A stretch of 64,000 nucleotides of DNA from Escherichia coli (GTDB lineage: Bacteria; Pseudomonadota; Gammaproteobacteria; Enterobacterales; Enterobacteriaceae): assembly GCF_029227855.1 (NCBI RefSeq), contig NZ_CP074356.1. One strand, 5' to 3'. Of the stretch, positions 7,314 through 39,299 are shown piece by piece (positions within the stretch are counted from its first letter, which is position 1; each line of letters opens with the position of its first letter). A program made the position numbers and the translations under genes. The notes beneath the pieces were generated by a model. That model saw nothing but the letters and a program-made list of their open reading frames with translations, searched no databases and was not told the DNA's origin.

Positions 7314-7322
7314 GAGGCCCTG

Positions 7323-8021: not shown

Positions 8022-8025
8022 TCCC

Positions 8026-12848: not shown

Positions 12849-12867
12849 ATTTTATAACCCATATACG

Positions 12868-12892: not shown

Positions 12893-12915
12893 TTGCAGAA
12901 AAGCGAGAGGTAATT

Positions 12916-13515
12916 ATGCGTAAAGTTTGTGCCGCCATTTTTTCCGCAGCCATTTGTCTGGCCGTATCCGGTGCGCCTGCATGGGCATCTGAACATCAGT
13001 CCACGCTGAGCGCGGGGTATCTTCATGCCTCGACGAACGTTCCCGGCAGCGATGATCTGAACGGGATTAACGTGAAATACCGTTATGAGTTTACGGACAC
13101 ACTGGGGATGGTGACGTCATTCAGCTATGCAGGAGACAAGAATCGCCAGCTTACCCGTTACAGCGATACCCGCTGGCATGAAGATTCCGTGCGTAACCGC
13201 TGGTTCAGCGTGATGGTGGGGCCGTCTGTGCGCGTGAATGAATGGTTCAGCGCGTATGCGATGGCGGGTATGGCTTACAGCCGTGTTTCGACTTTCTCCG
13301 GAGATTATATCCGCGTAACTGACAACAAGGGGAAAACGCACGATGTGCTGACCGGAAGTGATGACGGTCGCCACAGCGACACGTCTCTGGCATGGGGGGC
13401 TGGCGTGCAGTTTAACCCGACCGAATCCGTGGCCATTGATATTGCTTATGAAGGTTCCGGCAGTGGCGACTGGCGCACTGACGGTTTCATCGTTGGTGTC
13501 GGTTATAAATTCTGA
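12916..13515 (+). CDS. lom: Lom-like outer membrane beta-barrel protein (Ail/PagC/OmpX family)
   Basis: 199 aa with signal peptide, alternating aromatic beta strands and terminal Phe; sits after J as in lambda. Confidence 0.9.
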
Positions 13516-13541
13516 TTAGCCAGGTAACACAGTGTTATGAC

Positions 13542-13569
13542 AGCCCGCCGGTTCAGGCGGGCTTTTTTG
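13542..13569 (+). terminator. Intrinsic terminator after lom
   Basis: AGCCCGCC-GGTTCAG-GCGGGCT hairpin followed by TTTTTT. Confidence 0.6.
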
Positions 13570-14272: not shown

Positions 14273-14290
14273 ATTTATTGTGGAGTGGAT

Positions 14291-16696: not shown

Positions 16697-16977
16697 TGAA
16701 AGATTTAACACTCAAATTTGCCGACAGGGCCGATTTTTCGGCCTTTATGGGAAGTATTGGCTATTATAATGACGAGTCGATGCAGGATGATATTCTGATT
16801 GATGTGATAGGTAACGTGTACAAAGAAACCGGAGAGCTGACTGAAGATGGCGAACCGGTATGTGTTAAGGAAGATGGATATTTTGTAAACGTGCGCATCA
16901 TTAAGGATACGCAAATATCGTCATTATTCGATGAATACGCGGTTGCTGTTGAGCATCAACTTCGTGGCTGGATGTGA
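16696..16977 (+). CDS. Hypothetical small acidic protein, translationally coupled to stf
   Basis: 93-aa ORF whose ATG overlaps the stf stop (TAATG); AT-rich; no family recognised. Confidence 0.5.
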   Translation: MKDLTLKFADRADFSAFMGSIGYYNDESMQDDILIDVIGNVYKETGELTEDGEPVCVKEDGYFVNVRIIKDTQISSLFDEYAVAVEHQLRGWM

Positions 16978-16986
16978 GGTAGAGAA

Positions 16987-17691
16987 ATGGCTACATCAAC
17001 AGTAATTCCGGGAGACATCACCACGCTGAAGGGAGATGTTAGTAAAGCAAAGGAAGATATTTCCTCTATTAACGGAAAAGTATCAACGCTTCAGACTGAT
17101 ATGGCCAGTGCAAAGCAGGATATCAGCACCAGATACACAAAAACTGAAGTTGATAATAAGCTGAAAAACAAAGTGGAAGTGAACGATCTGGAAAGTGGTC
17201 GTTATGGCGGAGATTTTTACCCGCTGACTGGCCGTGAAGCGTTTTATTTATGGGGATTGGGCACAACTACAGCGGCGGCAAATCTTTATCTTAATCCTGA
17301 CCCTGCAATTTCGTCTGTGCTGCGGTCAACATCGTCTATCCGCTATAAACATTCAGTAGAGACGATAGATTCAGAGCACGCCGATCTCATTTTCAGGATG
17401 CGCCCTGTGTGGTACAGGTCGCAATGCGAAAATGACAGGCGTGACTGGGGATTCTATGGATTGATTGCCGAGGAAGTTGGAGAAATTGCCCCTCAGTTTG
17501 TTCACTGGCGACCAGCCAACGAAGATGATGCACCGGAAACCATTTCCAGCAATGGCCTTGTTGCCGAAGGTGTAATGTACGAACGTCTGGTTGTTCCACT
17601 GATTCACCATATCCAGAAGCTGACTGAAAGAGTTGATGAACTTGAGTCAGAATTAAAGTTGTTATCCGTTTCCCGAAGCGATATCGGATAA
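16987..17691 (+). CDS. Short fibre-like protein: N-terminal coiled coil plus C-terminal intramolecular-chaperone (Peptidase S74-like) domain
   Basis: 234 aa; heptad-like N-terminus; C-terminal region has S-x-x-R-x-K (SSIRYKH), RPVWYR and GLIAEEV motifs resembling endosialidase chaperone domains. Confidence 0.55.
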   Translation: MATSTVIPGDITTLKGDVSKAKEDISSINGKVSTLQTDMASAKQDISTRYTKTEVDNKLKNKVEVNDLESGRYGGDFYPLTGREAFYLWGLGTTTAAANLYLNPDPAISSVLRSTSSIRYKHSVETIDSEHADLIFRMRPVWYRSQCENDRRDWGFYGLIAEEVGEIAPQFVHWRPANEDDAPETISSNGLVAEGVMYERLVVPLIHHIQKLTERVDELESELKLLSVSRSDIG

Positions 17692-17701
17692 AGGAGGCGT
17701 A

Positions 17702-17995
17702 ATGGATATAACACCTTTCCTTCATGCACTTTGTGCTGTGGCTGCGCAGGTACTGGTTGGTCTTTTTACCGGAAACTGGGCTTACGGGGCGATAGCTGGT
17801 TGTACGTTCTTCATTGCGCGTGAACATACCCAGGCAGAATATCGCTGGATTGAAATGTTCGGGCATGGCAAGCGTATGAATATGCCGTGGTGGGGCGGTT
17901 TTGATCCGCGTGCGTGGGATGTGGCAAGCCTGATGGATTTTGCTGTGCCGGTGGTGGCGTGTCTGCTGGTCTGGCTGTTGGTTAATCGTGGGTGA
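17702..17995 (+). CDS. Hypothetical small membrane protein (2-3 predicted TM segments)
   Basis: 97-aa ORF with hydrophobic stretches; GGAGG Shine-Dalgarno upstream. Confidence 0.45.
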   Translation: MDITPFLHALCAVAAQVLVGLFTGNWAYGAIAGCTFFIAREHTQAEYRWIEMFGHGKRMNMPWWGGFDPRAWDVASLMDFAVPVVACLLVWLLVNRG

Positions 17996-18005
17996 AAAAA
18001 GGTGA

Positions 18006-18125
18006 GCTGTATATGCAACGGAGGAAGAAACCTCGTTGCGGGAAGCCTTGAAGAAGTATCGGGTGTTGCTGAACCGTGTTGATACGTCAACTGCACAGGA
18101 TATTGAATGGCCAGCACTGCCGTAG
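18006..18125 (+). pseudogene. tfa: Tail fibre assembly (Tfa) gene remnant: only the conserved C-terminal ~39 codons
   Basis: Translation [29 protein letters not shown] matches the conserved Tfa C-terminus; the frame closes at a stop just upstream at 18003-18005. Confidence 0.55.
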
Positions 18126-18222
18126 GGTAAAACATATAAATTCTATAATTAGATGTATCTTTCCATTTACGGCAAGGAAGGGGGCTTGGAAGACGTAAGG
18201 CATCTCACACCGAGATTATTTT

Positions 18223-18813
18223 TTATATGTCAGGTGTCTGAAGTTTTGCTTTGGCTCTTAAAATGGTTTGCCGCGAGGTTTTGAATTCCCGGGCAATGGC
18301 ACTTATACTTACACCTGACTTAATCCGTTCGAATACCACCTGTTTCTGTTCTTCATTTAACACAGGTGGTCGACCAAAACGTTTCCCTGCGCCCCGGGCT
18401 CTTACTATCCCGGAATGAGTGCGTTCAAGTAAAAGGTCTCGTTCAAATTCAGCGACTGCTGAAATTACTTGCATCATCATTTTTCCTGTTGGACTGGTCA
18501 GGTCAATGCCCCCCAATGCTAAGCAATGCACTCTGATACCTGTTTCGGTCAGTTGTTCCACTGTTTTCCTGATATCCATTGCATTACAACCAAGGCGATC
18601 CAGTTTTGTCACAATCAATTGATCACCACATTTCAGGCGAGCAAGCAACCGGTTAAAACCAGGACGCTCACTGGTTGCTGCTGAGCCGCTAATGTGTTCT
18701 TCGATTATTTGCTGAGGTTTGATTTTAAAACCTGCACTTTCGATTTCCCGGCGTTGATTTTCGGTGGTCTGATCCAGCGTTGATATCCGACAGTAAGCAA
18801 AAATTCGAGACAT
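18223..18813 (-). CDS. pinQ: Serine recombinase / DNA invertase (PinQ/PinR-like)
   Basis: 196 aa; N-terminal catalytic region (YCRISTLDQ) and C-terminal helix-turn-helix; convergent with the tfa remnant, next to ydfK. Confidence 0.85.
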
Positions 18814-19129
18814 AGTGAGACTCTATACGAAATTGGTGTTCATATCATAATGCATCTCAGAAAATAATTTTGATTATTTTTTTGCATGTTTGTATGTACA
18901 CGTTCGAAAATAAACGAATGCGTATGCAACCCCGTAATTTTGGTGAGACCCAAAATCGATTTTGTGAAAAATGGCTTTAACTCGGTTTGTTTTTCGAGTT
19001 CCGGGCGGACTCAAGGAAGAAGAATAGTGTTGCGTGTTATTTTAACCAGATTTCAAGTTGTTTGGTCGTGGAAAAGTGGAGCAAAATGTTGTTAAAGTGG
19101 AAAAATGATAAAAAAGTAAGTTTATTATA

Positions 19130-19363
19130 TTACATTTTACCATTTAAATTTTGGTTGTCTTTAAGAACTGATATCGCTGTTTGTAATAATTCTTTGTTAT
19201 CCAGCCATGATTTGTTCTTTATGTTTCCTTCAATGTAATCAAGCAATGTTCTGGTATTGATAGGTCTTCCCTGTTTTGCTACTTCCACTACAGCATCCCC
19301 TAGGATAATTCTGACTTCAGGAAGCTGCGCAGGGAACCACTTTAGGGTGTCTTTTGATTTCAT
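19130..19363 (-). CDS. ydfK: Small prophage protein YdfK/YnaE-like
   Basis: 77 aa from the internal Met (MKSKDTLKWF...), matching the recalled YdfK length and its position next to pin. Confidence 0.55.
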   Translation of the reverse strand: MKSKDTLKWFPAQLPEVRIILGDAVVEVAKQGRPINTRTLLDYIEGNIKNKSWLDNKELLQTAISVLKDNQNLNGKM

Positions 19364-20147
19364 GAATATATTCCTTAAAATATTATTGATTTTCATTGCG
19401 ATATTGTATGTCTGATTCAGGATATGTTGACTTATACATCGGTTTTGTCTGGGTTATTGGATATGCCAATCCCTAATTTTATTAGAGCATGACTAAAAAT
19501 GCTGAATATGATAAGGAGCGAAGTGATTATCAGTATGCTGTTCATATAGCCTCGAATTAGTAATGTGTTATATATGATATAGTTGACAATTTTTATCCTG
19601 GGTGTTCTTAAAGTTCGTAGATAAACATTGTCGTTTCAGGTATACAGGAATGCTAACAGATGGCGGCAAAAATCAGGCGGTTTATGGCGCAAGCTGAAGT
19701 GGCAACTGCAAACTATCTTATGCAGAGACTCTACACGGATTGGGTTTAAAAGTATACATAGATAACAGTTTTTATCTGAAGAAGAAAAATATCAAGGTGA
19801 TATAGCCTATATGCCTTTGATGCGGAGGAATGAATGTGATGGGAGTGATGTATCTGAATAGTTGAAAAACCGCAGACACGCCTTATGCAAGAACGTGCTG
19901 CGGTTGGCTGGTAAATTTTTCGATAGTGCGAGTATTGAATGATTTCCAGCCGTTATTGATTTTACGCGTAACTCCATGAAAAAACTACTTATCTGTTGAG
20001 GAGTTTTTTGGGGCATATATGGGACAGAAATAGGCCCCAGATAGACACTGAGATCGAACTTAGGATGCTTTTTAAAAAATGCAACTATCTGAAAAAACCT
20101 AGAAAACGCCAAGGAAACCACAGGATGGGAAAAAACACCTGTGAATT

Positions 20148-21431
20148 ATGGATTTCCAGTTATATTCGCTCGGCGCAGCGTTAGTGTTTCATGAAATATT
20201 TTTTCCTGAATCATCAACGGCAATGGCGTTAATTCTGGCAATGGGAACCTACGGTGCAGGTTATGTGGCGCGTATTGTCGGAGCATTTATTTTCGGCAAA
20301 ATGGGCGACAGAATCGGGCGTAAAAAAGTGCTCTTTATTACCATCACCATGATGGGGATCTGTACCACCTTAATTGGTGTGCTGCCGACCTATGCACAAA
20401 TTGGTGTGTTTGCGCCAATTTTGCTGGTGACGCTGCGTATTATTCAGGGGCTGGGGGCAGGCGCGGAAATTTCCGGTGCCGGCACGATGCTGGCGGAATA
20501 TGCACCAAAAGGTAAGCGCGGAATTATCTCCTCATTTGTTGCTATGGGGACTAACTGCGGAACCTTGAGCGCAACGGCAATCTGGGCCTTTATGTTCTTC
20601 ATTCTCAGTAAAGAGGAACTGCTGGCGTGGGGATGGCGTATACCGTTCCTGGCGAGCGTTGTCGTGATGGTCTTTGCTATCTGGTTGCGTATGAATCTGA
20701 AAGAAAGCCCGGTCTTTGAGAAGGTTAACGACAGCAACCAACCGACAGCAAAACCTGCACCTGCTGGTAGCATGTTCCAGAGCAAATCCTTCTGGCTGGC
20801 AACAGGGCTGCGTTTTGGTCAGGCTGGTAACTCCGGTTTAATTCAGACTTTCCTTGCAGGCTATTTAGTGCAGACGTTATTGTTTAACAAAGCAATTCCA
20901 ACAGATGCATTGATGATCAGTTCGATTCTCGGCTTTATGACCATTCCGTTCCTTGGTTGGTTATCCGATAAAATTGGTCGCCGGATCCCGTATATTATTA
21001 TGAATACCTCTGCGATTGTGCTGGCGTGGCCAATGCTTTCTATCATCGTAGATAAAAGCTATGCCCCGAGCACCATTATGGTTGCACTGATTGTGATTCA
21101 TAACTGTGCGGTGCTGGGATTATTTGCTCTGGAAAACATTACCATGGCAGAAATGTTCGGCTGTAAAAACCGCTTTACCCGGATGGCTATTTCTAAAGAA
21201 ATTGGTGGTCTTATCGCTTCCGGTTTTGGTCCTATCCTGGCGGGTATTTTCTGCACCATGACGGAATCCTGGTATCCGATCGCCATTATGATCATGGCAT
21301 ATTCAGTGATTGGTTTAATCTCTGCGCTGAAAATGCCAGAAGTGAAAGACCGTGATTTAAGTGCGCTGGAAGACGCTGCGGAAGATCAACCGCGTGTTGT
21401 CAGAGCTGCGCAACCTTCCAGAAGTCTTTAA
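20148..21431 (+). CDS. ydfJ: MFS metabolite:H+ symporter YdfJ, N-terminally truncated at the prophage junction
   Basis: Frame opens right after a TGA at 20142-20144 and starts within the first transmembrane region, so about 20-30 N-terminal residues are missing. Confidence 0.8.
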   Translation: MDFQLYSLGAALVFHEIFFPESSTAMALILAMGTYGAGYVARIVGAFIFGKMGDRIGRKKVLFITITMMGICTTLIGVLPTYAQIGVFAPILLVTLRIIQGLGAGAEISGAGTMLAEYAPKGKRGIISSFVAMGTNCGTLSATAIWAFMFFILSKEELLAWGWRIPFLASVVVMVFAIWLRMNLKESPVFEKVNDSNQPTAKPAPAGSMFQSKSFWLATGLRFGQAGNSGLIQTFLAGYLVQTLLFNKAIPTDALMISSILGFMTIPFLGWLSDKIGRRIPYIIMNTSAIVLAWPMLSIIVDKSYAPSTIMVALIVIHNCAVLGLFALENITMAEMFGCKNRFTRMAISKEIGGLIASGFGPILAGIFCTMTESWYPIAIMIMAYSVIGLISALKMPEVKDRDLSALEDAAEDQPRVVRAAQPSRSL

Positions 21432-21519
21432 ATCCTCAATCCCTTCTCTTACCGGAGAGGGGATTTTTATTCATATAACAAAACATGTAGCTTGCCATAT
21501 TTATGTTTAAGGAATTGTT

Positions 21520-22980
21520 ATGGGAAATAATTTGTTATCAGCAAAAGCGACACTCCCTGTTTATGATCGTAATAACCTGGCCCCAAGAATTGTTCATTTA
21601 GGCTTTGGTGCATTTCACCGTGCGCATCAGGGCGTGTATGCCGATATTCTTGCTACAAAACATTTCAGTGATTGGGGATATTATGAGGTCAACTTAATCG
21701 GCGGCGAACAGCAAATTGCCGATTTACAACAGCAAGATAATCTTTATACCGTTGCGGAAATGTCGGCCGATGCGTGGACGGCTCGCGTCGTTGGCGTCGT
21801 TAAAAAAGCCTTGCACATACAAATAGATGGCTTAGAAACCGTGCTGGCTGCGATGTGTGAACCGCAAATCGCGATTGTCTCTCTGACAATCACCGAAAAA
21901 GGGTATTTCCACTCTCCGGCGACCGGACAGTTAATGCTCGATCACCCGATGGTCGTTGCCGACGTACAAAATCCCCACCAGCCGAAAACTGCAACAGGGG
22001 TGATTGTCGAGGCGCTGGCTCGCCGTAAAGCGGCAGGACTTCCCGCATTTACCGTCATGTCATGTGACAACATGCCAGAAAACGGTCATGTTATGCGTGA
22101 CGTTGTCACTTCCTACGCGCAAGCTGTTGATGTAAAACTGGCACAATGGATCGAAGAAAACGTGACTTTCCCATCAACAATGGTGGACCGTATTGTGCCC
22201 GCAGTGACAGAGGATACGCTGGCGAAAATCGAACAACTTACCGGTGTGCGCGATCCTGCTGGCGTTGCCTGTGAACCTTTCCGCCAGTGGGTAATAGAAG
22301 ATAACTTTGTTGCCGGACGTCCGGAATGGGAAAAAGCGGGAGCCGAACTGGTTAGTGATGTGCTGCCTTATGAAGAGATGAAGTTGCGCATGCTCAACGG
22401 CAGTCATTCATTCCTGGCGTATCTGGGGTATCTTGCCGGATATCAGCACATTAATGACTGTATGGAAGATGAACATTATCGTCATGCAGCGTATGCCTTG
22501 ATGTTGCAGGAACAAGCGCCGACGTTGAAAGTGCAGGGCGTTGATTTGCAAGATTACGCTAACCGATTAATTGAACGCTATAGCAACCCGGCGCTACGTC
22601 ATCGAACCTGGCAGATTGCGATGGATGGCAGCCAGAAATTGCCACAGCGGATGTTGGATTCTGTTCGCTGGCATCTGGCGCATGACAGCAAGTTCGATCT
22701 GCTGGCGCTGGGCGTCGCAGGTTGGATGCGTTATGTCGGTGGTGTTGATGAACAGGGAAATCCGATAGAAATCAGTGACCCACTGTTACCTGTTATTCAG
22801 AAGGCTGTACAAAGTAGTGCCGAAGGGAAAGCGCGCGTCCAGTCATTGCTGGCGATTAAGGCGATCTTTGGTGATGATTTGCCAGACAATAGCTTGTTTA
22901 CTGCAAAAGTGACGGAAGCGTACTTGTCTTTATTAGCGCATGGTGCGAAAGCGACCGTGGCGAAATATTCCGTGAAGTAA
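21520..22980 (+). CDS. ydfI: Mannitol dehydrogenase-family oxidoreductase YdfI
   Basis: 486 aa with an N-terminal Rossmann fold ([14 protein letters not shown]). Confidence 0.9.
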
Positions 22981-23010
22981 AAAAGCAATGCCGCCATCGG
23001 CGGCATTCAC
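22981..23010. terminator. Bidirectional terminator hairpin between ydfI and ydfZ
   Basis: AATGCCGCC-ATC-GGCGGCATT palindrome flanked by A- and T-rich runs. Confidence 0.6.
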
Positions 23011-23014
23011 ACGC

Positions 23015-23218
23015 TTAGTTCATGCCGAGACGAATCAGGTCCAGAGGTGCCAGTTTCTCTTCACAACCTTCAACAACTACGGTTTTTCCGCGGCGGATTT
23101 GCTCAGCGGTCAGACCTTCAGTATCAATCGACAGGATCTTGCCAGTGTGACCGGTGCCGCTAACCATAACACGGCTGCCAGTGGTGATTGCGTTACGGTT
23201 ACGATCGTAGGTCGTCAT
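23015..23218 (-). CDS. ydfZ: Selenium-binding protein YdfZ
   Basis: 67-aa ORF matching recalled YdfZ ([28 protein letters not shown]). Confidence 0.85.
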
Positions 23219-23394
23219 AGGTGTTTTCTCCTTTCTGATTTACAGTCGAAGCCCACGTAACGGGCGCAATATAAATACTCCTGTCGAGTGAAATATTTTT
23301 TGTTTTTGATCAAGCTCACATCTTTTTTGATGCATGCATGAGCCATAAGGCGGGGGGAAAGACTCTCACCCCGGATGGGATGAGAGGAAATGAA

Positions 23395-24081
23395 TTACTC
23401 TTCGCTAAACCAGTCGCTGTTTTCCTGGCGGATCTGGCGCACGGATTCGCTGATTTCCTGCAAATGTTGCGTCATTGCACGTTCTACCGCATCGCCATCA
23501 CGTTTTTGCAGGGCAGAGAAAATATCAAGATGCTGGCGTAACAGCATTTCTGGTGGAGAAACGTGGTCGAAACTCATATAGCGCACGCGATCAACGGTCG
23601 CTTTCAGGTTCTCAATGGTATCCCACGCCAGTTGACAGTCGGCAATCTGGGTCAGGAGTTGATGGAAGTTGTCATCAAGTTCAAAAAAATCATCCAGTTG
23701 CTTGCGCTCAATGGCAATGCGTTGCTGGTGAAGATTTTGTTCCAGTTGGTAGCACTGGCTTTCGGTAATCATGCTCGCCGCCCGACGCGCCACCGCGCAC
23801 TCAATGGCCTGACGGATAAAACTGCCGTTGCGCACCTGGGCCATGGAAATTTTGTTGACGTAGCTGCCACGCTGCGGACGAATTTGAATCAGGCCGTTTT
23901 CCGCCAGTTTAATAAAGGCTTCACGAACCGGCTGGCGTGACACATTGAAACGAACAGAAACTTCTTTTTCCGACAACGGTGTGCCTGGTGCAATCAGGCA
24001 ATGGACAATGTCGCGACGAAGAATACGATAAATCTGCTGATTGACAGGCTGTGTGGGATTAAGTTGCGTTTCGACGGTCAT
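23395..24081 (-). CDS. ydfH: GntR/FadR-family transcriptional regulator YdfH (RspR)
   Basis: 228 aa with an N-terminal GntR helix-turn-helix and FCD-type C-terminal domain. Confidence 0.9.
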
Positions 24082-24169
24082 TCGTTCTTGCTTGTGAGTG
24101 AGTTAACTGCATGAGTCTACCACTTTTTTGTGACAAGCAATAACCCGGCAGTTACGCCGGGTATAAAAA

Positions 24170-24916
24170 TTACTGACGGTGGACATTCAGTCCGGCATAG
24201 CTTTGGGTAACCGGCATCATTTCCAGGGTATTGATATTGACGTGAGCAGGCAGCGTTGACACCCACCAGACGGCTTCGCTGACATCTTCTGGCGTCAATG
24301 CAACGGTATTTTGATAGGTTTTTTCCGCTTTACCGTCATCGCCTTTAAAGCGGACATTGGAAAACTCGGTGCCACCCACCAGACCCGGCTCGATGTCGGT
24401 GACGCGCACCGCCGTACCATGCAGGTCCGTACGCAGATTCAGGCTAAACTGACGAACAAACGCTTTCGTCGCACCGTAAACGTTACCACCGGCATACGGC
24501 CAGCTGCCTGCCGTTGAGCCAATGTTAATAATATGACCATGATTACGTTCAACCATACCCGGTAAGACGGCGCGCGTCATATATACCAGGCCTTTGTTGT
24601 TGGTATCAATCATCGTTTCCCAGTCTTCAACGCTGGCTTTATGCGCAGGCTCCATGCCCAACGCCAGGCCGGCATTATTTACCAGGATATCAATATTGCA
24701 CCACTCGGCAGGAAGCGATGCCAGCATCTCTTCAATAGCGGCGCGGTTGCGAACGTCCAGTTGGGCGATATAAAGATTATCTCCCAGTTCGTCTTTTAAC
24801 TCCTGCAACCGCTCCTGGCGACGGCCAGTGGCGATAACTTTATGCCCTTGTTGAATAAAACGACGAGTAATGCATTCACCAAAACCTGCCGTTGCTCCAG
24901 TTACTAAAACGATCAT
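24170..24916 (-). CDS. ydfG: NADP-dependent 3-hydroxy acid dehydrogenase YdfG (SDR family)
   Basis: 248 aa from MIVLVTGATAGFGE (TGxxxGxG motif); Shine-Dalgarno upstream of ATG 24916. Confidence 0.9.
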   Translation of the reverse strand: MIVLVTGATAGFGECITRRFIQQGHKVIATGRRQERLQELKDELGDNLYIAQLDVRNRAAIEEMLASLPAEWCNIDILVNNAGLALGMEPAHKASVEDWETMIDTNNKGLVYMTRAVLPGMVERNHGHIINIGSTAGSWPYAGGNVYGATKAFVRQFSLNLRTDLHGTAVRVTDIEPGLVGGTEFSNVRFKGDDGKAEKTYQNTVALTPEDVSEAVWWVSTLPAHVNINTLEMMPVTQSYAGLNVHRQ

Positions 24917-25052
24917 CTCACTGTTCCTCAACGCTTTTGTGTGTCAATAACATAGCACGTGATGCTTAAGAGCGGGTAATACTGGTTTGCAAGATTGCAC
25001 TCCGTTATCAGTAAGCCTACGCTATGGAACACCTCGCGTTCAGGAGAAGAAA

Positions 25053-27098
25053 ATGACAACAATGAATCCTTTCCTTGTGCAAAGCACACTGCCGTATCTG
25101 GCTCCCCATTTTGATCAAATTTCCAATCATCACTATCGCCCGGCATTCGATGAGGGAATGCTGCAAAAGCGGGCAGAAATTACTGCCATCGCGCTTAACC
25201 CGCAAACGCCTGATTTCAACAATACTATTCTGGCACTGGAACAAAGCGGAGAATTACTTACCCGCGTTACCAGCGTCTTTTTTGCGATGACTGCGGCGCA
25301 TACCAATGATGAATTACAGCGTCTTGATGAACAGTTTTCCGCTGAACTGGCGGAACTGGCTAATGATATCTATCTGAACGGTGAATTATTCGCGCGGGTA
25401 GATGCTGTCTGGCAGCGCCGAGAATCCCTGGGGCTTGATAGTGAATCCATCCGCCTGGTGGAGGTGATTCATCAACGTTTTGTCCTTGCCGGAGCCAAAC
25501 TTGCGCAAGCTGATAAAGCAAAATTAAAAGTACTGAATACAGAAGCTGCGACCCTGACCAGCCAGTTTAACCAGCGGTTACTGGCAGCAAATAAATCCGG
25601 CGGTCTGGTTGTGAACGATATCGCGCAGCTGGCAGGAATAAGTGAGCAAGAGATTGCGCTGGCGGCAGAGGCGGCTCGCGAGAAAGGTCTGGATAACAAA
25701 TGGCTGATTCCGCTGCTGAATACCACCCAACAACCGGCGCTTGCCGAAATGCGCGATCGCGCGACGCGTGAAAAACTGTTTATTGCGGGCTGGACGCGAG
25801 CGGAAAAAAATGATGCCAATGATACCCGCGCTATCATTCAACGTCTGGTGGAGATCCGTGCACAACAGGCAACATTACTTGGTTTTCCTCATTATGCCGC
25901 ATGGAAAATCGCCGATCAGATGGCAAAAACACCTGAAGCAGCACTCAACTTTATGCGGGAAATTGTTCCAGCGGCGCGTCAACGTGCGAGCGATGAATTA
26001 GCCTCCATACAGGCGGTTATTGATAAGCAGCAGGGCGGGTTTAGCGCGCAGCCGTGGGACTGGGCATTTTATGCCGAGCAGGTAAGACGTGAGAAATTCG
26101 ATCTCGATGAATCGCAGCTCAAGCCATATTTTGAATTAAACACGGTGTTGAATGAAGGTGTATTCTGGACCGCGAATCAGCTCTTCGGTATTAAGTTTGT
26201 CGAACGTTTTGATATTCCTGTCTACCATCCTGACGTTCGTGTGTGGGAAATTTTTGATCATAATGGCGTGGGGCTGGCGTTATTTTACGGTGATTTCTTC
26301 GCCCGTGATTCAAAAAGCGGCGGTGCATGGATGGGCAATTTTGTTGAGCAATCAACGCTTAATGAAACGCACCCGGTAATTTATAACGTCTGCAATTATC
26401 AGCAACCCGCCGCTGGGGAGCCTGCGTTGTTACTCTGGGATGATGTCATAACCTTATTCCATGAATTTGGTCATACGCTGCACGGCCTTTTTGCCCGCCA
26501 GCGTTATGCCACGCTTTCCGGCACCAACACGCCGCGTGATTTTGTCGAATTTCCGTCGCAAATCAACGAACACTGGGCAACGCATCCGCAGGTATTCGCT
26601 CGCTACGCCCGGCATTATCAGAGCGGGGCAGCAATGCCTGAAGAGCTGCAACAGAAAATGCGTAATGCCAGCCTGTTCAACAAAGGGTATGAGATGAGCG
26701 AACTGCTTAGCGCCGCACTTCTCGATATGCGTTGGCATTGCCTGGAAGAAAACGAAGCAATGCAGGATGTCGATGATTTTGAATTGCGGGCGCTGGTGGC
26801 GGAAAATATGGATCTTCCTGCTATACCGCCACGCTATCGCAGCAGTTATTTCGCCCATATTTTTGGTGGCGGATATGCCGCAGGTTATTACGCTTATCTG
26901 TGGACGCAAATGTTGGCCGATGATGGTTACCAGTGGTTTGTTGAGCAGGGCGGATTAACGCGTGAAAATGGGCGGCGTTTTCGCGAGGCGATTCTTTCCA
27001 GAGGTAACAGCGAAGATCTGGAACGCCTGTATCGACAATGGCGCGGTAAGGCACCTCAGATTATGCCGATGCTGCAACATCGTGGCTTGAACGTATAA
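25053..27098 (+). CDS. dcp: Dipeptidyl carboxypeptidase II (M3 family zinc peptidase)
   Basis: 681 aa starting MTTMNPF; HEFGH zinc-binding motif; AGGAGAA Shine-Dalgarno. Confidence 0.9.
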   Translation: MTTMNPFLVQSTLPYLAPHFDQISNHHYRPAFDEGMLQKRAEITAIALNPQTPDFNNTILALEQSGELLTRVTSVFFAMTAAHTNDELQRLDEQFSAELAELANDIYLNGELFARVDAVWQRRESLGLDSESIRLVEVIHQRFVLAGAKLAQADKAKLKVLNTEAATLTSQFNQRLLAANKSGGLVVNDIAQLAGISEQEIALAAEAAREKGLDNKWLIPLLNTTQQPALAEMRDRATREKLFIAGWTRAEKNDANDTRAIIQRLVEIRAQQATLLGFPHYAAWKIADQMAKTPEAALNFMREIVPAARQRASDELASIQAVIDKQQGGFSAQPWDWAFYAEQVRREKFDLDESQLKPYFELNTVLNEGVFWTANQLFGIKFVERFDIPVYHPDVRVWEIFDHNGVGLALFYGDFFARDSKSGGAWMGNFVEQSTLNETHPVIYNVCNYQQPAAGEPALLLWDDVITLFHEFGHTLHGLFARQRYATLSGTNTPRDFVEFPSQINEHWATHPQVFARYARHYQSGAAMPEELQQKMRNASLFNKGYEMSELLSAALLDMRWHCLEENEAMQDVDDFELRALVAENMDLPAIPPRYRSSYFAHIFGGGYAAGYYAYLWTQMLADDGYQWFVEQGGLTRENGRRFREAILSRGNSEDLERLYRQWRGKAPQIMPMLQHRGLNV

Positions 27099-27107
27099 AC
27101 ACCACCA

Positions 27108-27140
27108 ATGGCTGGCCTGGAGAAATCGCCAGGCCAGCCT
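27108..27140 (+). terminator. Hairpin terminator after dcp
   Basis: GGCTGGCCTGG-AGAAATCG-CCAGGCCAGCC stem-loop. Confidence 0.5.
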
Positions 27141-27461
27141 GGTTATAGCAGTAATTGCAGCAGCTGGGCGAGGGCAAACTTCACCGCTAATGCGAATGCC
27201 GTTTCGCAGTCGCCAGCAAAATTACTTTTTTTGTATACCCTTCCGTTATAATAATTTTCAAATTTATAAATCTGATTGTTCTGAAATATGTTTAAGTCTC
27301 TTTAATCTTCTTCTTACTTTAGTGAGTAAAATTCTCTGAATATTTGACAGCTAGTTGCCTGATTTTAAATGCCTTATAACAATTGCAGTATTCTTATTTG
27401 TCAATTATAAAAATAGCAACCAGACTTAATAAGTCAAACCAAACGCAATTAAGGAGTCAGT

Positions 27462-27854
27462 ATGAAATTTCAGGCCATTGTATTAGCAAGTTTTCTTGTC
27501 ATGCCTTATGCGTTGGCAGATGACCAGGGCGGATTAAAACAGGATGCAGCGCCACCGCCGCCTCATGCAATAGAAGATGGCTATCGCGGAACCGATGATG
27601 CAAAAAAAATGACCGTTGATTTCGCAAAAACCATGCATGATGGCGCTTCGGTTTCACTACGCGGTAATTTGATTTCTCACAAAGGAGAGGACCGTTACGT
27701 TTTTCGCGATAAGAGCGGTGAAATTAATGTTGTTATTCCTGCGGCAGTCTTTGATGGGCGAGAAGTTCAGCCGGACCAGATGATCAACATTAGCGGTAGT
27801 CTGGATAAGAAAAGCGCTCCGGCCGTCGTTCGGGTCACTCATTTGCAGAAATAA
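27462..27854 (+). CDS. ydeI: Periplasmic OB-fold protein YdeI (YgiW/BOF family)
   Basis: 130 aa with signal peptide. Confidence 0.85.
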
Positions 27855-28108
27855 AAATAAATTAGCCTGATGGCCTGAACTACTGGGCCATTAGGTTATT
27901 GGGTTATGCTATTTGTCATCCTTTTAATTGCGATAATGCAGGCTTAATTTACAGAATTAAACACTTTTTTATCCGCTGATTTTGTTTTAAATCACAATGT
28001 TATCTCAGAGATGACTCATAACTTCGGATTTCTATGAAAATATTGACGTAATTTTGCTTTTCTCTCGTTAGAATAGCGCGCACAAGGAACTGTGAAAAAG
28101 GAGTGGCA

Positions 28109-28999
28109 ATGATCAAGAAGACAACGGAAATTGATGCCATCTTGTTAAATCTCAATAAGGCTATCGATGCCCACTACCAGTGGCTGGTAAGTATGTTTCA
28201 CAGCGTAGTCGCGAGAGATGCCAGTAAGCCAGAAATAACGGATAACCATTCTTATGGACTGTGCCAGTTTGGTCGGTGGATTGATCATCTGGGACCACTC
28301 GATAACGATGAATTACCTTATGTTCGGCTAATGGATTCTGCCCATCAACATATGCATAACTGTGGTCGGGAATTAATGCTGGCTATTGTTGAAAATCACT
28401 GGCAGGACGCGCATTTCGACGCCTTTCAGGAAGGGTTGCTTTCTTTTACTGCGGCATTAACCGATTACAAAATTTATTTGCTGACTATCCGTAGCAATAT
28501 GGATGTTTTGACGGGATTGCCGGGTCGTCGGGTTCTTGATGAATCCTTTGATCATCAGTTACGCAACGCTGAGCCTCTGAATCTTTATTTAATGTTGTTG
28601 GATATTGACCGATTTAAATTGGTTAATGATACCTACGGGCATTTAAACGGCGATGTAGTATTACGCACCCTGGCAACTTACTTAGCCAGTTGGACGCGCG
28701 ATTACGAAACGGTTTATCGCTACGGTGGCGAAGAATTTATCATTATTGTCAAAGCGGCTAATGATGAAGAAGCATGTCGTGCAGGTATCAGAATTTGCCA
28801 GTTAGTCGATAACCATGCCATCACACATTCTGAAGGGCATATCAACATTACCGTGACAGCAGGTGTCAGTCGCGCATTTCCTGAAGAGCCTCTGGATGTG
28901 GTCATTGGAAGAGCGGACCGGGCAATGTATGAGGGTAAGCAAACCGGAAGAAATCGCTGTATGTTTATTGACGAACAAAACGTGATTAACCGAGTTTAA
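28109..28999 (+). CDS. dgcZ: Zinc-sensing diguanylate cyclase DgcZ (YdeH)
   Basis: 296 aa from MIKKTTEIDAILLNL; GGEEF motif (YRYGGEEFIIIV). Confidence 0.9.
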   Translation: MIKKTTEIDAILLNLNKAIDAHYQWLVSMFHSVVARDASKPEITDNHSYGLCQFGRWIDHLGPLDNDELPYVRLMDSAHQHMHNCGRELMLAIVENHWQDAHFDAFQEGLLSFTAALTDYKIYLLTIRSNMDVLTGLPGRRVLDESFDHQLRNAEPLNLYLMLLDIDRFKLVNDTYGHLNGDVVLRTLATYLASWTRDYETVYRYGGEEFIIIVKAANDEEACRAGIRICQLVDNHAITHSEGHINITVTAGVSRAFPEEPLDVVIGRADRAMYEGKQTGRNRCMFIDEQNVINRV

Positions 29000-29039
29000 G
29001 CTCCGTTTAACATTCATTGAGAAAACTGATGCTACTGTG

Positions 29040-29147
29040 TCAACGATCCGTTATCAGTGCAGGAAAATGCCTGTTAGCGTAAAAGCAAAACACAAATCTA
29101 TCCATGCAAGCATTCACCGCCGGTTTACTGGCGGTTTTTTTTTGCCG
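29040..29147 (+). ncRNA. mgrR: Candidate MgrR-type small RNA; 5' end uncertain
   Basis: Strong intrinsic terminator (CACCGCCGG-TTTACT-GGCGG plus 9 T) about 120 nt after the dgcZ stop, in the dgcZ-mgtS gap where mgrR is expected. Confidence 0.3.
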
Positions 29148-29217
29148 TCATAAAAATCAGGCCCCTTGTACACAACTGTAACAAGGGGCCGGTTAGGTGA
29201 GGGATTATCTCCGTTCA

Positions 29218-29313
29218 TTAGTCATCCCATTTGTGGCTGAAATACGCGGCCAGAAAACCAGAAAATAAAATTATTCCCAGTACGGCCATAAAAACATTCA
29301 TATTACCCAGCAT
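29218..29313 (-). CDS. mgtS: Small membrane protein MgtS (YneM), 31 aa
   Basis: Hand translation gives MLGNMNVFMAVLGIILFSGFLAAYFSHKWDD with a GGAGG Shine-Dalgarno upstream and a hairpin terminator downstream; not in the supplied ORF track. Confidence 0.8.
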   Translation of the reverse strand: MLGNMNVFMAVLGIILFSGFLAAYFSHKWDD

Positions 29314-29439
29314 TATTTGCCTCCGTTTATGGTGTGGTGTGTTTCCTCGCTTACCTTAATTTTCATCTCAATGAGAAAGATATTAGCAGAGATAACCTAA
29401 ACGAAGGCTGAATTAAATTTTTATTGTGTTCGACTTAAA

Positions 29440-30627
29440 TCAACAAAGCGCGGGCTGCCCCCACGGTCTTGCACGAATTCCTTTTAACATCAGCACCCAC
29501 GCAGCAATAATCACCAACGTTAAGATGATAAACAGCGAGGAAGGCGGCAGGTTGGTTAGCACTACGCCACTCACTAATGGGTTAATCGCGGCACCAAGCC
29601 AGCCTAAAGACTGGGCGGAAAAATAGCTGGCTTTCATTCCTGGCGGCGCAATATGGTCAATCAACATATACTCGCCCGGCGCATAAATGATTTCACCGAC
29701 AGTAAATACCGCAGCTGACATACCCCACAATAGCAGGCTGTTGCCGGAAAAAATAAAACCAACCAGACCGATGACGAAACAGAGGGTGCCTGCTGTCATC
29801 AGCGCGCGGATGTTAGCCGGGTTAAGGCGGCGGCCCACGGAATATTGCAACGTAACTACCATGGCAGCATTCACCGGAAGAACAACCGCAACCACCTTTT
29901 CGGCAAAATCCCCATCAGCAATCACCATCACATATTGTGAAATGCATGAAGCAAATGCGCCGCTAACAAAGGAAGCCAGAAAACCAGAGCAGGTAAACCA
30001 CAACAGTGCTTTATCTTGTAATAAAACTTTCGGCGACCAGGCACTGCCTGTTTCCGTGGCGATGATTTTCTCGCTGCGCTTTACCCAAATTTGAATGAAA
30101 AGCATGGGAAACGCGGAACAGATAGCAGCCAGCCAAAAGGGCAGATTGATGCTCTGCATCACCAACAGCGTGCCGAGCGGCGGACCGATGGTCCAGCCAA
30201 TGTTGAGCATGGTGTAGTTGATTGAGAAGATTTTCGTTTTGCTGGTGGAGGAAAGATTGTCGGCAAACCAGGCTTTCAACACGGTAGCAAAAACGGAATA
30301 GGCGCAGTTAATAAGGGCAAAAAAGAGCACCACCAGCGTCACGTTATTCACTAAAGGAATGGCAATAAAACCGCTGGCGAAGGCGGTAATTGCCAGTAAC
30401 ATATAGCGTTTCTTGTCGAACTTATCCGCCAGGATACCAAAACCGAGACTAAAAACGACGCCAATAGTGAGCGCAATTGTCATCGCATAACCGATTAGAT
30501 CGACACTCAGGTTGTACTGGCGACTCAAGTAAATGGTCATAAACGGCAGCGTAGCGCCGCGTCCGATGGTTAATAACAACGACGAGGCAAGAAGGGCGCT
30601 GGTAGAGCGTCGGAGGGATAAGTTCAT
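29440..30627 (-). CDS. ydeE: MFS transporter YdeE
   Basis: 395-aa, 12-TM major facilitator protein in the expected position. Confidence 0.9.
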   Translation of the reverse strand: MNLSLRRSTSALLASSLLLTIGRGATLPFMTIYLSRQYNLSVDLIGYAMTIALTIGVVFSLGFGILADKFDKKRYMLLAITAFASGFIAIPLVNNVTLVVLFFALINCAYSVFATVLKAWFADNLSSTSKTKIFSINYTMLNIGWTIGPPLGTLLVMQSINLPFWLAAICSAFPMLFIQIWVKRSEKIIATETGSAWSPKVLLQDKALLWFTCSGFLASFVSGAFASCISQYVMVIADGDFAEKVVAVVLPVNAAMVVTLQYSVGRRLNPANIRALMTAGTLCFVIGLVGFIFSGNSLLLWGMSAAVFTVGEIIYAPGEYMLIDHIAPPGMKASYFSAQSLGWLGAAINPLVSGVVLTNLPPSSLFIILTLVIIAAWVLMLKGIRARPWGQPALC

Positions 30628-30821
30628 TTGTCTGTCCGGCAGTGCGTTTCGTTATGTTTTGTTTTAGAGATGTAAAGAAATAGCATGGCAAAAATCCGAA
30701 GTATAGCGACTTATTTGCGCATTAATGCCGTCGTAATCGGCGACTAACGAATCAACTGTTAAAGAAAAGTAAATTCAGCTAAGTTGATTGCTTACAAAAG
30801 ATGAAATTCAGAGGCGGTAGA

Positions 30822-31721
30822 ATGTCGCGAAAAGATGGGGTGTTGGCGCTACTGGTAGTGGTCGTATGGGGGCTGAATTTTGTGGTCATCAAAGTGGGGC
30901 TTCATAACATGCCACCGCTGATGCTGGCCGGTTTGCGCTTTATGCTGGTCGCTTTTCCGGCTATCTTTTTTGTCGCACGACCGAAAGTACCGCTGAATTT
31001 GCTGCTGGGGTATGGATTAACCATCAGTTTTGCGCAGTTTGCTTTTCTTTTTTGTGCCATTAACTTCGGTATGCCTGCTGGACTGGCTTCGCTGGTGTTA
31101 CAGGCACAGGCGTTTTTTACTATCGTACTTGGCGCATTTACTTTCGGTGAGCGGCTGCATGGCAAACAATTGGCGGGGATTGCCTTAGCGATTTTTGGCG
31201 TACTGGTGTTAATCGAAGATAGTCTGAACGGTCAGCATGTGGCGATGCTCGGCTTTATGTTGACCCTGGCGGCAGCATTTAGTTGGGCGTGTGGCAACAT
31301 CTTCAATAAAAAGATCATGTCGCACTCAACGCGCCCGGCGGTGATGTCGCTGGTAATCTGGAGCGCATTAATCCCAATCATTCCCTTCTTTGTTGCCTCG
31401 CTGATTCTCGATGGTTCCGCAACCATGATTCACAGTCTGGTCACTATCGATATGACCACCATCTTGTCTCTGATGTATCTGGCGTTTGTGGCGACAATTG
31501 TTGGTTATGGGATCTGGGGGACGTTACTGGGACGCTATGAAACCTGGCGGGTTGCACCGTTATCGTTACTGGTGCCCGTAGTAGGACTGGCAAGTGCGGC
31601 ACTATTGTTGGATGAACGCTTAACGGGTCTACAATTTTTCGGTGCGGTGCTCATTATGACCGGGCTGTATATCAATGTATTTGGCTTGCGGTGGCGTAAA
31701 GCGGTAAAGGTTAGAGGCTAA
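30822..31721 (+). CDS. eamA: Cysteine/O-acetylserine exporter EamA (YdeD)
   Basis: 299 aa from MSRKDGVLALLVV; drug/metabolite transporter family. Confidence 0.9.
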   Translation: MSRKDGVLALLVVVVWGLNFVVIKVGLHNMPPLMLAGLRFMLVAFPAIFFVARPKVPLNLLLGYGLTISFAQFAFLFCAINFGMPAGLASLVLQAQAFFTIVLGAFTFGERLHGKQLAGIALAIFGVLVLIEDSLNGQHVAMLGFMLTLAAAFSWACGNIFNKKIMSHSTRPAVMSLVIWSALIPIIPFFVASLILDGSATMIHSLVTIDMTTILSLMYLAFVATIVGYGIWGTLLGRYETWRVAPLSLLVPVVGLASAALLLDERLTGLQFFGAVLIMTGLYINVFGLRWRKAVKVRG

Positions 31722-31725
31722 ACCA

Positions 31726-31765
31726 TACGCACAGAATGTGATGCCAGCACTCTGTGCGTATGCTT
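31726..31765. terminator. Bidirectional terminator between eamA and the GntR regulator
   Basis: Perfect 12-bp stem (CATACGCACAGA...TCTGTGCGTATG) with a flanking T-run. Confidence 0.65.
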
Positions 31766-32464
31766 TTATCGCGGGAAAAAGTACTTTACCTGGAACTCGA
31801 AAATATTGCTGTAAAGTAACGAATAATCCAGCGGAATAGAGTTACTGTCCACAGCCTGGGTCTGAATTTTAAGTATGGGATCCCGTGGGCTGATCCGTAA
31901 AATACTGGCGATTTCTGGGGTAGGAAAAGTAGGGGAGAAAGTTTCAAAGGTGCCAATGATTTTGATCCCGCATTCGTTCTCAATATACGAAAATTTGGAT
32001 TTTTGCATATGTGCTACGGTTAAATCAGGAAAACGTGCCACTGACATCCACGTTTCTTCTAATTGTGCTGCATTATCCTCAATGAATCGCAGTCTCTTTA
32101 TGTAATAAACCTGCTCACCAGTCACTAAATTCAGCTCAGTCGCAATAGGGGGAGAAGCATCCTGCACTTCAAATTTCATAATCTGACTTCCTGCCTCCTT
32201 GCCGCTTTTATGCGCAATTTCACTGAAGCTGTTCATGTGATCAATGTGTGCAACAAAATTCTTTTTTTGAATATATGTTCCTGAACCATGCTTTCTATGA
32301 ATAATTCCTTCGCCTTCCAGCAAGGATAATGCCTTACGCAGGGTATTACGCGAAACATTATAACGAACAGCGAGTTCAGCTTCTGACGGCAACAAATCAC
32401 CAACATGCCATGAATAGCCATTGATCTCGGATTTAAGTAAGCGGGCAATCTTTTGAAAAATCAC
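31766..32464 (-). CDS. GntR-family regulator (HutC subfamily, UTRA effector domain)
   Basis: 232 aa; N-terminal winged helix-turn-helix (LPSEAELAVRYNVSRNTLRKAL); divergent from the PTS genes; AT-rich. Confidence 0.85.
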   Translation of the reverse strand: MIFQKIARLLKSEINGYSWHVGDLLPSEAELAVRYNVSRNTLRKALSLLEGEGIIHRKHGSGTYIQKKNFVAHIDHMNSFSEIAHKSGKEAGSQIMKFEVQDASPPIATELNLVTGEQVYYIKRLRFIEDNAAQLEETWMSVARFPDLTVAHMQKSKFSYIENECGIKIIGTFETFSPTFPTPEIASILRISPRDPILKIQTQAVDSNSIPLDYSLLYSNIFEFQVKYFFPR

Positions 32465-32662
32465 TTTTGCACCTTTTAAGAGCCATTGAAAACAAGGAGT
32501 TGAGTCCTGATTGGTTTATCGTATGGCCGAGTCGTTTAATTATTACCCTGATGTTGAACAACTTTATTGCTGTATTACTGTGATCAATGTACCAGGACGT
32601 ATAGCTACTGCGGGATATGATATTTACACAATGTAATCTGTTATATACCAGTAAGGGAAAAT

Positions 32663-32974
32663 ATGAAAAAGATATTGTTAGTTTGCGCTGCGGGCATGTC
32701 AACCAGTATGCTGGTTAAACGTATGATTGATCATGCTAACGCTATTTCACTTGAAGTTAATATTTCCGCATTGGCGATTGCAGAGGCTAAAGGGAAAATT
32801 AAAAATAACGAAGTTGACGTTGTTTTACTTGGCCCGCAAGTTCGCTTTCAGAAACCAGAGATTGAAGCTGTTGCACAGGGGAAAATGCCTGTAGCTGTTA
32901 TCGAGATGAAAGACTATGGCACCATGAACGGACAGGCAGTTCTTGAATTTGCGATGAAACTACTGCAAGAGTAA
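32663..32974 (+). CDS. PTS lactose/cellobiose-family EIIB
   Basis: 103 aa; N-terminal MKKILLVCAAGMSTS with phospho-accepting Cys. Confidence 0.85.
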   Translation: MKKILLVCAAGMSTSMLVKRMIDHANAISLEVNISALAIAEAKGKIKNNEVDVVLLGPQVRFQKPEIEAVAQGKMPVAVIEMKDYGTMNGQAVLEFAMKLLQE

Positions 32975-33088
32975 GAATCTAATATTATTAAACTATTACC
33001 TGAACTAACTTTTCACACATCATAAAATGGATATGGCATACATGCTTTATTGGGATGTATAAATATCCAGAACAACAGGTATAAAAAA

Positions 33089-34411
33089 ATGGGATTAATG
33101 ACCTCATTCGAACGTGGAATGGAACGTTTTCTTGTTCCAGTTGCTATCAAGTTAAACTCACAAAAACATGTTGCAGCGGTGAGAGATGGATTCGTTTTTA
33201 CGTTTCCAATTATCATGGCAAGCTCATTAATTATATTAATAAACTTTGCCATATTATCGCCAGACGGCTTTATTGCCGGACTGCTGCATCTGAACAGCGT
33301 TTTTCCCAACCTTGAAAAAGCACAAGCTATTTTTACTCCGGTAATGAATGGCTCTGTAAATATCATGTCAATTATGATTGCTTTCCTGGTCGCCAGAAAT
33401 ATGGCGATTAGCTATGAGCAAGATGATCTTTTATGCGGATTAACGGCAATAGGAGCATTTTTTATTGTTTATACGCCATATCAGATGATAGATGGGCAAG
33501 CATTCCTGACGACCAAATATCTCGGCGCACAGGGGTTGTTTGTTGCTGTTATCGTTGCATTAATCACCAGTGAAATATTTTGTCGCTTAGCTCGAAACCC
33601 AAAAATCACCATAACGATGCCGGCAGCTGTACCTCCTGCGGTATCGCGTTCATTTAAAGTTTTATTGCCAATATTTTTTGTCATGGTGTTCTTTTCCGCA
33701 CTTAATTATTGCCTGACACTGATATCCCCGGCAGGATTAAACGATCTCATTTACACATTAATCCAGACGCCGCTCAAACATATGGGAACGAATATCTTTG
33801 CGGTAATTATCCTGGGGGCTGTGGGTAATTTCCTGTGGGTGCTGGGGATCCACGGACCTAATACCACCTCGGCAATTCGAGAAACTGTTTTTTCTGAGGC
33901 TAATCTGGAGAATCTCTCCTGGGCCGCTCAACACGGCACTACCTGGGGCGCGCCATATCCGATTACCTGGACTTCTATTAATGATGCATTCGCCAACTGC
34001 GGCGGTTCAGGTATGACGTTGGGGTTATTGTTGGCTATTTTTATCGCGTCTAAGCGTGCGGAATACCGTGATCTGGCAAAAATGTCGTTTATCCCCGGTA
34101 TTTTCAATATCAATGAACCGATAATGTTCGGCCTTCCTATTGTACTTAACCCCATCATGATGGTGCCGTTTATTCTGGTTCCCATTGTTAACTGTGCCAT
34201 TGGTTACTTCTTTGTTTCGATGGAAATTATTCCACCGGTTGCTTATGCCGTGCCCTGGACTACGCCCGGACCTTTAATTGCTTTCCTCGGAACCGGGGGA
34301 AACTGGCTGGCGTTACTGGTGGGTTTTTTATGTTTAGGTGTGGCGACAATGATCTATTTACCTTTTGTTATTGCCGCCAACAAGGTCAATAACTTAACAA
34401 CTAACGGATAA
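33089..34411 (+). CDS. PTS lactose/cellobiose-family EIIC permease
   Basis: About 440-aa polytopic membrane protein; start chosen at an internal Met and could shift by a few codons. Confidence 0.8.
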   Translation: MGLMTSFERGMERFLVPVAIKLNSQKHVAAVRDGFVFTFPIIMASSLIILINFAILSPDGFIAGLLHLNSVFPNLEKAQAIFTPVMNGSVNIMSIMIAFLVARNMAISYEQDDLLCGLTAIGAFFIVYTPYQMIDGQAFLTTKYLGAQGLFVAVIVALITSEIFCRLARNPKITITMPAAVPPAVSRSFKVLLPIFFVMVFFSALNYCLTLISPAGLNDLIYTLIQTPLKHMGTNIFAVIILGAVGNFLWVLGIHGPNTTSAIRETVFSEANLENLSWAAQHGTTWGAPYPITWTSINDAFANCGGSGMTLGLLLAIFIASKRAEYRDLAKMSFIPGIFNINEPIMFGLPIVLNPIMMVPFILVPIVNCAIGYFFVSMEIIPPVAYAVPWTTPGPLIAFLGTGGNWLALLVGFLCLGVATMIYLPFVIAANKVNNLTTNG

Positions 34412-34438
34412 TCCCATTTACACAGGAAGGAGATGTTG

Positions 34439-34750
34439 ATGTTTGCAGATGAAGAACTTGTTATGGAGTTACTGATCAACGCGGGACAGGCACGTTCTGA
34501 TGCGATGGAAGCCATACGTTGTGCCGGGCAAAAAGACTGGCAGGGCGCAACTCAGCTAATGGCCAGTTCGGAATTAGCCTGTCTTCAGGCACATAAAATT
34601 CAGACCGCGTTAATTAGTCAGGATGAAGGTTGTGGCAAAATAGTAGTTAATTTAATTCTGGTTCATGCACAGGATCATTTGATGAATGCAATATTATGCC
34701 AGGATTTAGCCAGGGAAATTATTTCATTAAGAAAAGAGCTCCATGCCTGA
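34439..34750 (+). CDS. PTS lactose/cellobiose-family EIIA
   Basis: About 103 aa, helical; GGAAGGAG Shine-Dalgarno before ATG 34439. Confidence 0.85.
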   Translation: MFADEELVMELLINAGQARSDAMEAIRCAGQKDWQGATQLMASSELACLQAHKIQTALISQDEGCGKIVVNLILVHAQDHLMNAILCQDLAREIISLRKELHA

Positions 34751-34802
34751 TTTTTTCCTCCAGTGCGATAGCTGGAGGAAATTATTACACTCTTAAGGAT
34801 AA

Positions 34803-36473
<1,671 letters not shown>

Positions 36474-36479
36474 TGGTAA

Positions 36480-37943
<1,464 letters not shown>

Positions 37944-37960
37944 GACTTCAGGAAGATATT

Positions 37961-37990
37961 ACGGAGATATCAGGCTCTGTGATCAGAGCC
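37961..37990. terminator. Bidirectional terminator between the glucosidase gene and marB
   Basis: Perfect CAGGCTCTG-TGAT-CAGAGCCTG hairpin. Confidence 0.6.
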
Positions 37991-37999
37991 TGACAATAA

Positions 38000-39088: not shown

Positions 39089-39299
39089 ATTAGTTGCCCT
39101 GGCAAGTAATTAGTTGCAGGGGATAATATTGCCCAGGCAAGTATAAGTCAAATGAATGAATTGACCGATGCCACGTTTTGCTAAATCGGTTCAAATTTTG
39201 GTCAGTGCGATGCAAGGCTAGCTAAAGAGTGACACTTTATCGTTGTTTACCCCTTATACTTTTCGCTGATAACCCAGATACACAGGATAACAACCACCA
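39089..39299. promoter_or_regulatory. marO divergent promoter/operator region with two MarR-type palindromes
   Basis: TTGCCCTGGCAA at 39094-39105 and TTGCCCAGGCAA at 39129-39140, about 35 bp apart, just upstream of the marR start. Confidence 0.7.

Follow-up and report, generated by a model that had tools for sequence, protein, structure and literature searches.

The CinA/PncC protein family (PF02464) includes YgaD/PncC as well as YdeJ, the product of the gene that is lost in the DNA described here. PncC has NMN deamidase activity, whereas YdeJ is a CinA-domain paralogue without this activity (PMC3855486). In Salmonella, the promoter of ydeJ is sensitive to supercoiling, the DNA of a ydeJ mutant is more negatively supercoiled, and the protein has been renamed RdsA (PMC7387798). 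The structure of YdeJ is available as PDB 5KOL, in which it is labelled ‘uncharacterized protein’, and structures of relatives have also been solved. We know of no phenotype caused by the loss of ydeJ in E. coli, and a literature search revealed no paper in which a deletion of this gene is discussed.

The function assigned to YdeJ in databases deserves a separate remark. Both PGAP and NCBIfam NF002972 call it ‘2-oxo-tetronate isomerase’, although the protein is of the CinA/PncC-domain type (PF02464). The E. coli 2-oxo-tetronate isomerase of the literature is OtnI (b2739), which is separate from ydeJ, and no evidence behind the use of this name for YdeJ was found. The name looks questionable.

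In E. coli K-12 MG1655, the genes are arranged in the order dcp-ydeJ-ydeI-dgcZ (b1538-b1535), with ydeJ on the opposite strand. The gene is 519 bp long and encodes 172 amino acids with a CinA domain (PF02464, E 9e-48), which is also recognized as a PncC domain by TIGR00199. The preliminary description of the window (the whole 64-kb stretch of E. coli DNA that was analyzed) had given the K-12 map as having a CinA-family gene of about this size between dcp and ydeI, and this is correct: dcp and ydeI are not adjacent in MG1655, as ydeJ intervenes. The window resembles the MG1655 locus in its flanking genes, their order and orientation, a hairpin downstream of dcp and the YdeI protein. It differs in that MG1655 carries the full 519-bp ydeJ, of which the window keeps 81 bp of the 3′ end.

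The two genes that border the affected interval are intact. Peptidyl-dipeptidase Dcp (681 aa) is encoded at 25053..27098 on the plus strand, according to the PGAP coordinates of strain JNEC-KY178 mapped onto the window, and differs from Dcp of strain LR-24 at 12 of the 681 residues. The BOF (OB-fold) periplasmic stress protein YdeI (130 aa) is encoded at 27462..27854, likewise on the plus strand. With the dcp stop codon ending at 27098 and the ydeI ATG starting at 27462, the gap spans 27099..27461, and its reported length of 363 bp is thereby borne out. When YdeJ was compared with all 64 kb by tblastn, as had been proposed earlier, the only significant hit was a C-terminal fragment at 27223..27176 (residues 147-162, E 0.001), so that no further ORF resembling YdeJ emerged. 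The list of open reading frames likewise contains none between dcp and ydeI that has about 170 codons and matches PF02464 or NCBIfam NF002972. The absence of ydeJ as a gene from the window is therefore confirmed. The claim that it is missing needs one amendment, namely that an 81-bp piece of it persists, so that the deletion is partial and not clean.

The breakpoints were placed by affine-gap global alignment of the window with LR-24, which has a full ydeJ (LR-24 locus 6643..7161) and the same gene order as K-12. This alignment, which covered the interval singled out for comparison in the preliminary description, showed collinear flanks and one gap. Window positions 20500..27222 and 27222..31711 correspond to LR-24 locus 1..6722 and 7197..11688, respectively, with 98% identity, and 475 bp of the ydeJ+ allele (LR-24 locus 6722..7196) have no counterpart in the window. 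The deletion junction lies at 27221..27222, with a microhomology of 1 bp (T). The missing segment comprises codons 1 to about 146 of ydeJ together with 35 bp upstream of its start, and these 35 bp include a −10-like TATAAT on the ydeJ strand.

What remains of ydeJ are 81 bp at 27143..27223 on the minus strand, made up of the stop codon and the 26 codons before it, with neither a start codon nor a promoter. The remnant reads NFAGDCETAFALAVKFALAQLLQLLL followed by a stop, compared with HFAGDCETVLALAVRFALAQLLQLLL followed by a stop in K-12, and 22 of its 26 residues match K-12 YdeJ in frame. In the RefSeq/PGAP annotation of JNEC-KY178, ZH063 and GN06156 it is listed as a pseudogene, ‘incomplete; missing N-terminus’. 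As neither a start codon nor a −10 element is left and about 85% of the CinA domain has been deleted, YdeJ would be completely inactivated, and the window almost certainly carries a ydeJ null allele. It retains nothing of the catalytic domain.

The junction itself points to how the segment was lost. At 27221|27222 we found no IS remnant, inverted repeats, target-site duplication, or foreign or repeated sequence, and the event looks like a simple illegitimate recombination that was neither IS- nor repeat-mediated. Such a recombination would have taken out, in a single step, everything from the promoter-proximal 35 bp to about codon 146 of ydeJ. The locus has been affected by a mobile element in at least one other strain, EC1, where an IS1-associated deletion extends from within dcp to ydeE (window 26778..29347), and a similar origin could be imagined here, for example through an IS that was later excised or through recombination between repeats. 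Given that none of the corresponding traces are present at 27221|27222, that the microhomology amounts to 1 bp only and that both sides are collinear with the ydeJ+ allele, we regard this origin as quite improbable.

The distribution of the alleles was determined among 5426 complete E. coli genomes, to which all counts given here refer. A region of 1.5 kb around the interval matched 5418 of them, with JNEC-KY178 as the best match (99.9%); over 13.5 kb, the window and JNEC-KY178 are 99.95% identical. Full-length ydeJ was found in 3607 genomes at a coverage of at least 80%, and the exact junction of the window, searched with an 86-bp query at a coverage of at least 80%, in 1776. The two classes sum to 5383 of the 5426 genomes, and practically none of the ydeJ+ genomes is hit by the junction query. 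The ydeJ+ class contains K-12, W, O157:H7 and O111 strains, and the junction is carried by UTI89, ZH063, genomes of the IAI39 and SMS-3-5 types and ST131, among others. In IAI39- and SMS-3-5-type genomes, JNEC-KY178 and GN06156, both the junction and the 81-bp remnant are identical to those of the window, and there is no substantive difference between these alleles. Among the genomes nearest to the window, with 99% identity across 11.2 kb, are O102:H6 and ‘405’ strains, which we take to be phylogroup D clones. In one further strain, TK3889, ydeJ is present in a frameshifted form.

With these counts, the chance that an error of assembly or sequencing in one genome produced the gap is practically nil: we found no point in favor of it, the identical junction occurs in 1776 independently assembled complete genomes, and the remnant is consistently annotated by PGAP.

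A gene that is missing from a third of the genomes could in principle also have been gained by the remainder, such that its absence would be ancestral and ydeJ would have entered the space between dcp and ydeI on the K-12 lineage. Two outgroups were recovered through a protein search followed by look-up of their contigs. The order ydfG-dcp-ydeJ-ydeI-dgcZ is kept both in E. fergusonii and in a divergent lineage of Escherichia (GCA_020783085.1), and YdeJ orthologues are found across the Enterobacteriaceae, including Salmonella, Citrobacter and Klebsiella. The presence of dcp-ydeJ-ydeI in two outgroups indicates that ydeJ is ancestral at this position, and the in-frame 26-codon 3′ remnant at the site, which would suffice by itself, shows together with this synteny that ydeJ was lost here and not inserted in K-12. 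Apart from the fraction of genomes without the gene, nothing speaks for ancestral absence, and we consider it extremely improbable in view of the remnant, the same position of ydeJ in the two outgroups and the wide occurrence of its orthologues. The remnant can thus be classified as a pseudogene on three grounds: collinear flanks with a single gap, in-frame similarity and an intact gene in both outgroups.

Another candidate outgroup, Escherichia sp. MOD1-EC7003, provided the single locus that was retrieved when genome contigs were scanned with a degenerate DNA pattern derived from the C-terminus of Dcp. Independent deletions have cost this genome ydeI and ydeE as well as the greater part of ydeJ and of dgcZ, and owing to this larger deletion of its own it could not be used to polarize substitutions.

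Not all junction carriers have the same sequence to the right of the deletion. The 86 bp rightward of the junction are present as in the window in 759 carriers, and the remaining carriers, about 1017 genomes, are without the stretch immediately to the right. ZH063 illustrates how this can arise. It shares the ydeJ junction and remnant with the window, but has a second, nested deletion of 503 bp that corresponds to window positions 27263/5..27765/7 (with an ambiguity of 2 bp; junction at ZH063 locus 4763..4766). This deletion takes the upstream region of ydeI and about 100 of its codons, leaving a 90-bp remnant; ydeI is destroyed in ZH063, unlike in the window, where it is intact. The nested-deletion junction of ZH063 recurs with 100% identity in an O25b:H4-ST131 record, and UTI89 also matches the junctions of ZH063. 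No more than 1123 genomes match the nested junction, and this figure is slightly inflated by joined pieces. The approximately 1017 carriers probably share the nested deletion of ZH063, the one such genome that was read. Since the first junction in ZH063 is identical to that of the window, the ydeJ deletion must be older than the nested one.

Taken together, the data are almost certainly explained by one old 475-bp deletion in an ancestor of much of E. coli, from which the window inherited its allele; recombination between phylogroups may have added to the spread by descent. The loss would have been tolerated because YdeJ is a non-essential CinA-domain paralogue. It has no NMN deamidase activity, and a modest change of DNA supercoiling in Salmonella is the only phenotype reported for it.

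Whether the loss was not just tolerated but favored is a different question. The gene is not a dead one where it is retained: between E. coli and GCA_020783085.1, ydeJ has a dN/dS of 0.08, which indicates purifying selection and thus a functional gene, with a dN above that of the neighboring genes. One could accordingly propose that the loss of ydeJ, and of ydeI as well in ZH063-type genomes, was adaptive and selected in those lineages to which many extra-intestinal pathogens belong. Large named lineages, such as those of UTI89 and ST131, are fixed for the allele, the nested deletion struck the locus a second time, other lineages acquired deletions of their own there, and the phenotype of the Salmonella mutant is measurable (PMC7387798). 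Yet however many genomes have inherited it, the event amounts to one observation, repeated deletions are equally expected in a dispensable region, and ydeJ is retained by two thirds of the species. We therefore find an adaptive loss unlikely. Slightly less likely still is the more specific proposal that a stepwise decay of the locus, first of YdeJ/RdsA and then, in ZH063-type genomes, of YdeI, accompanied by the separate larger deletions in EC1 and MOD1-EC7003, was driven by selection rather than drift and was pathoadaptive in the phylogroups responsible for most extra-intestinal infections. The inheritance of one old deletion remains the preferred reading, and the allele is old, common and already annotated as a pseudogene, which makes it a case of ordinary strain variation. 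Any pangenome comparison would reveal it, and no new biology is involved.

The deletion left the dcp side of the interval in place. A GC-rich hairpin with an 11-bp stem is located at 27110..27139, between the convergent stop codons of dcp and ydeJ. The 66 nt that hold it fold with −30.6 kcal/mol on the plus strand and −30.9 kcal/mol on the minus strand (z-scores of −5.4 and −4.3, respectively), and the hairpin is kept in ydeJ+ as well as in deleted alleles, including K-12, where the same hairpin occurs. The terminator that had been described behind dcp is thus present as a structure, but it was not called in a consensus terminator scan, because no T-run follows the hairpin on the plus strand. 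It presumably still terminates transcription of dcp. No RNA family was found when 27000..27500 was searched against Rfam.

On the other side, YdeI is 100% identical to its K-12 counterpart. It matches PF04076 over residues 30-130 (E 4.9e-41), and a signal-like segment, judged by eye only, is present at its N-terminus. The spacer upstream of the gene (27224..27461) has a GC content of 27%, in agreement with the AT-rich character attributed to it before; the promoter that was placed there fared less well, as a consensus scan of the plus strand gave no convincing sigma-70 promoter for ydeI. The ydeI-proximal part of the upstream region (27282..27461, plus strand), which is AT-rich, is 93-98% identical to that of the ydeJ+ strain LR-24. 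As these 180 bp proximal to the ydeI start are conserved, expression of ydeI would be largely unaffected by the ydeJ deletion.

Some change in the regulation of ydeI may nevertheless have occurred. The regulator RcdA is reported to bind the spacer between ydeI and ydeJ and to activate ydeI, the coordinates of the site not being given (PMC3535384). No exact match to the RcdA box TTGTnnACA was found in the spacer of either K-12 or the window, and each contains one site with a single mismatch. The sole near-match in the K-12 spacer (TTGTCCACG) falls within the 35 bp that were deleted, and it is for this reason that an altered regulation is possible.

Between the junction and the conserved part lies the distal portion of the former ydeJ-ydeI spacer (27222..27281), which was once upstream of the ydeJ start and has been orphaned by the deletion. 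Over these 60 bp, the identity to ydeJ+ alleles is no higher than 80%, compared with about 97% nearby, and 11-12 differences consistently set the four ydeJ+ sequences that were aligned apart from both deletion alleles, those of the window and ZH063. With GCA_020783085.1 as the outgroup, 7-8 changes fall on the deletion branch and 4 on the ydeJ+ branch, whereas the outgroup has about 9 that are unique to it; the spacer of E. fergusonii was barely alignable. An import of foreign DNA or a mutagenic repair of the break was considered as the source of this patch and rejected, as the changes are spread over all three branches. The alignments suggest that 27222..27281 is mainly a spacer that evolves fast in every lineage. 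Constraint was perhaps relaxed further after the ydeJ promoter was lost, which would explain the divergence in part only.

Several other features of the window and its relatives were noted. Positions 1 to about 20100 are occupied by the late region of a lambdoid prophage (head, tail and tail-fibre genes) with pinQ, ydfK and ynfT, inserted in ydfJ, which is annotated in a sister genome as a pseudogene without its N-terminus. To the left of about 9000, this prophage and its counterpart in JNEC-KY178 are not the same: their identity is 93-97%, the coordinates are shifted, and 1..7300 has no match there. Two Rfam families were detected on the plus strand: STnc490 (145 bits, 13579..13702) within the prophage beside a lom-like gene, and STnc560 (281 bits, 29011..29224), presumably the homologue of MgrR, just downstream of dgcZ. 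Further to the right, a 6.3-kb accessory island is present between eamA and marB (31712..37997). It encodes a GntR regulator, PTS IIB/IIC/IIA components of the lactose/cellobiose type, a carbohydrate porin and a 6-phospho-beta-glucosidase, and is missing from LR-24, ZH063 and EC1. Conversely, LR-24 has a RelE/ParE toxin and an HTH antitoxin between marR and marC (LR-24 locus 12948..13733), a pair that is lacking at the corresponding place in the window (39219..39281).

The partial deletion of ydeJ places the window in one of the E. coli lineages that do not belong to the K-12-like group and marks ydeJ as a dispensable, variably present gene. The sequence of the junction is a clean lineage marker that divides the complete E. 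coli genomes roughly 2:1. About a fifth of the strains are in addition without the stretch upstream of ydeI, and in ZH063, the one such genome that was read, ydeI is destroyed. For anyone extending the supercoiling result for Salmonella YdeJ/RdsA to E. coli, a third of the strains would be natural null mutants.
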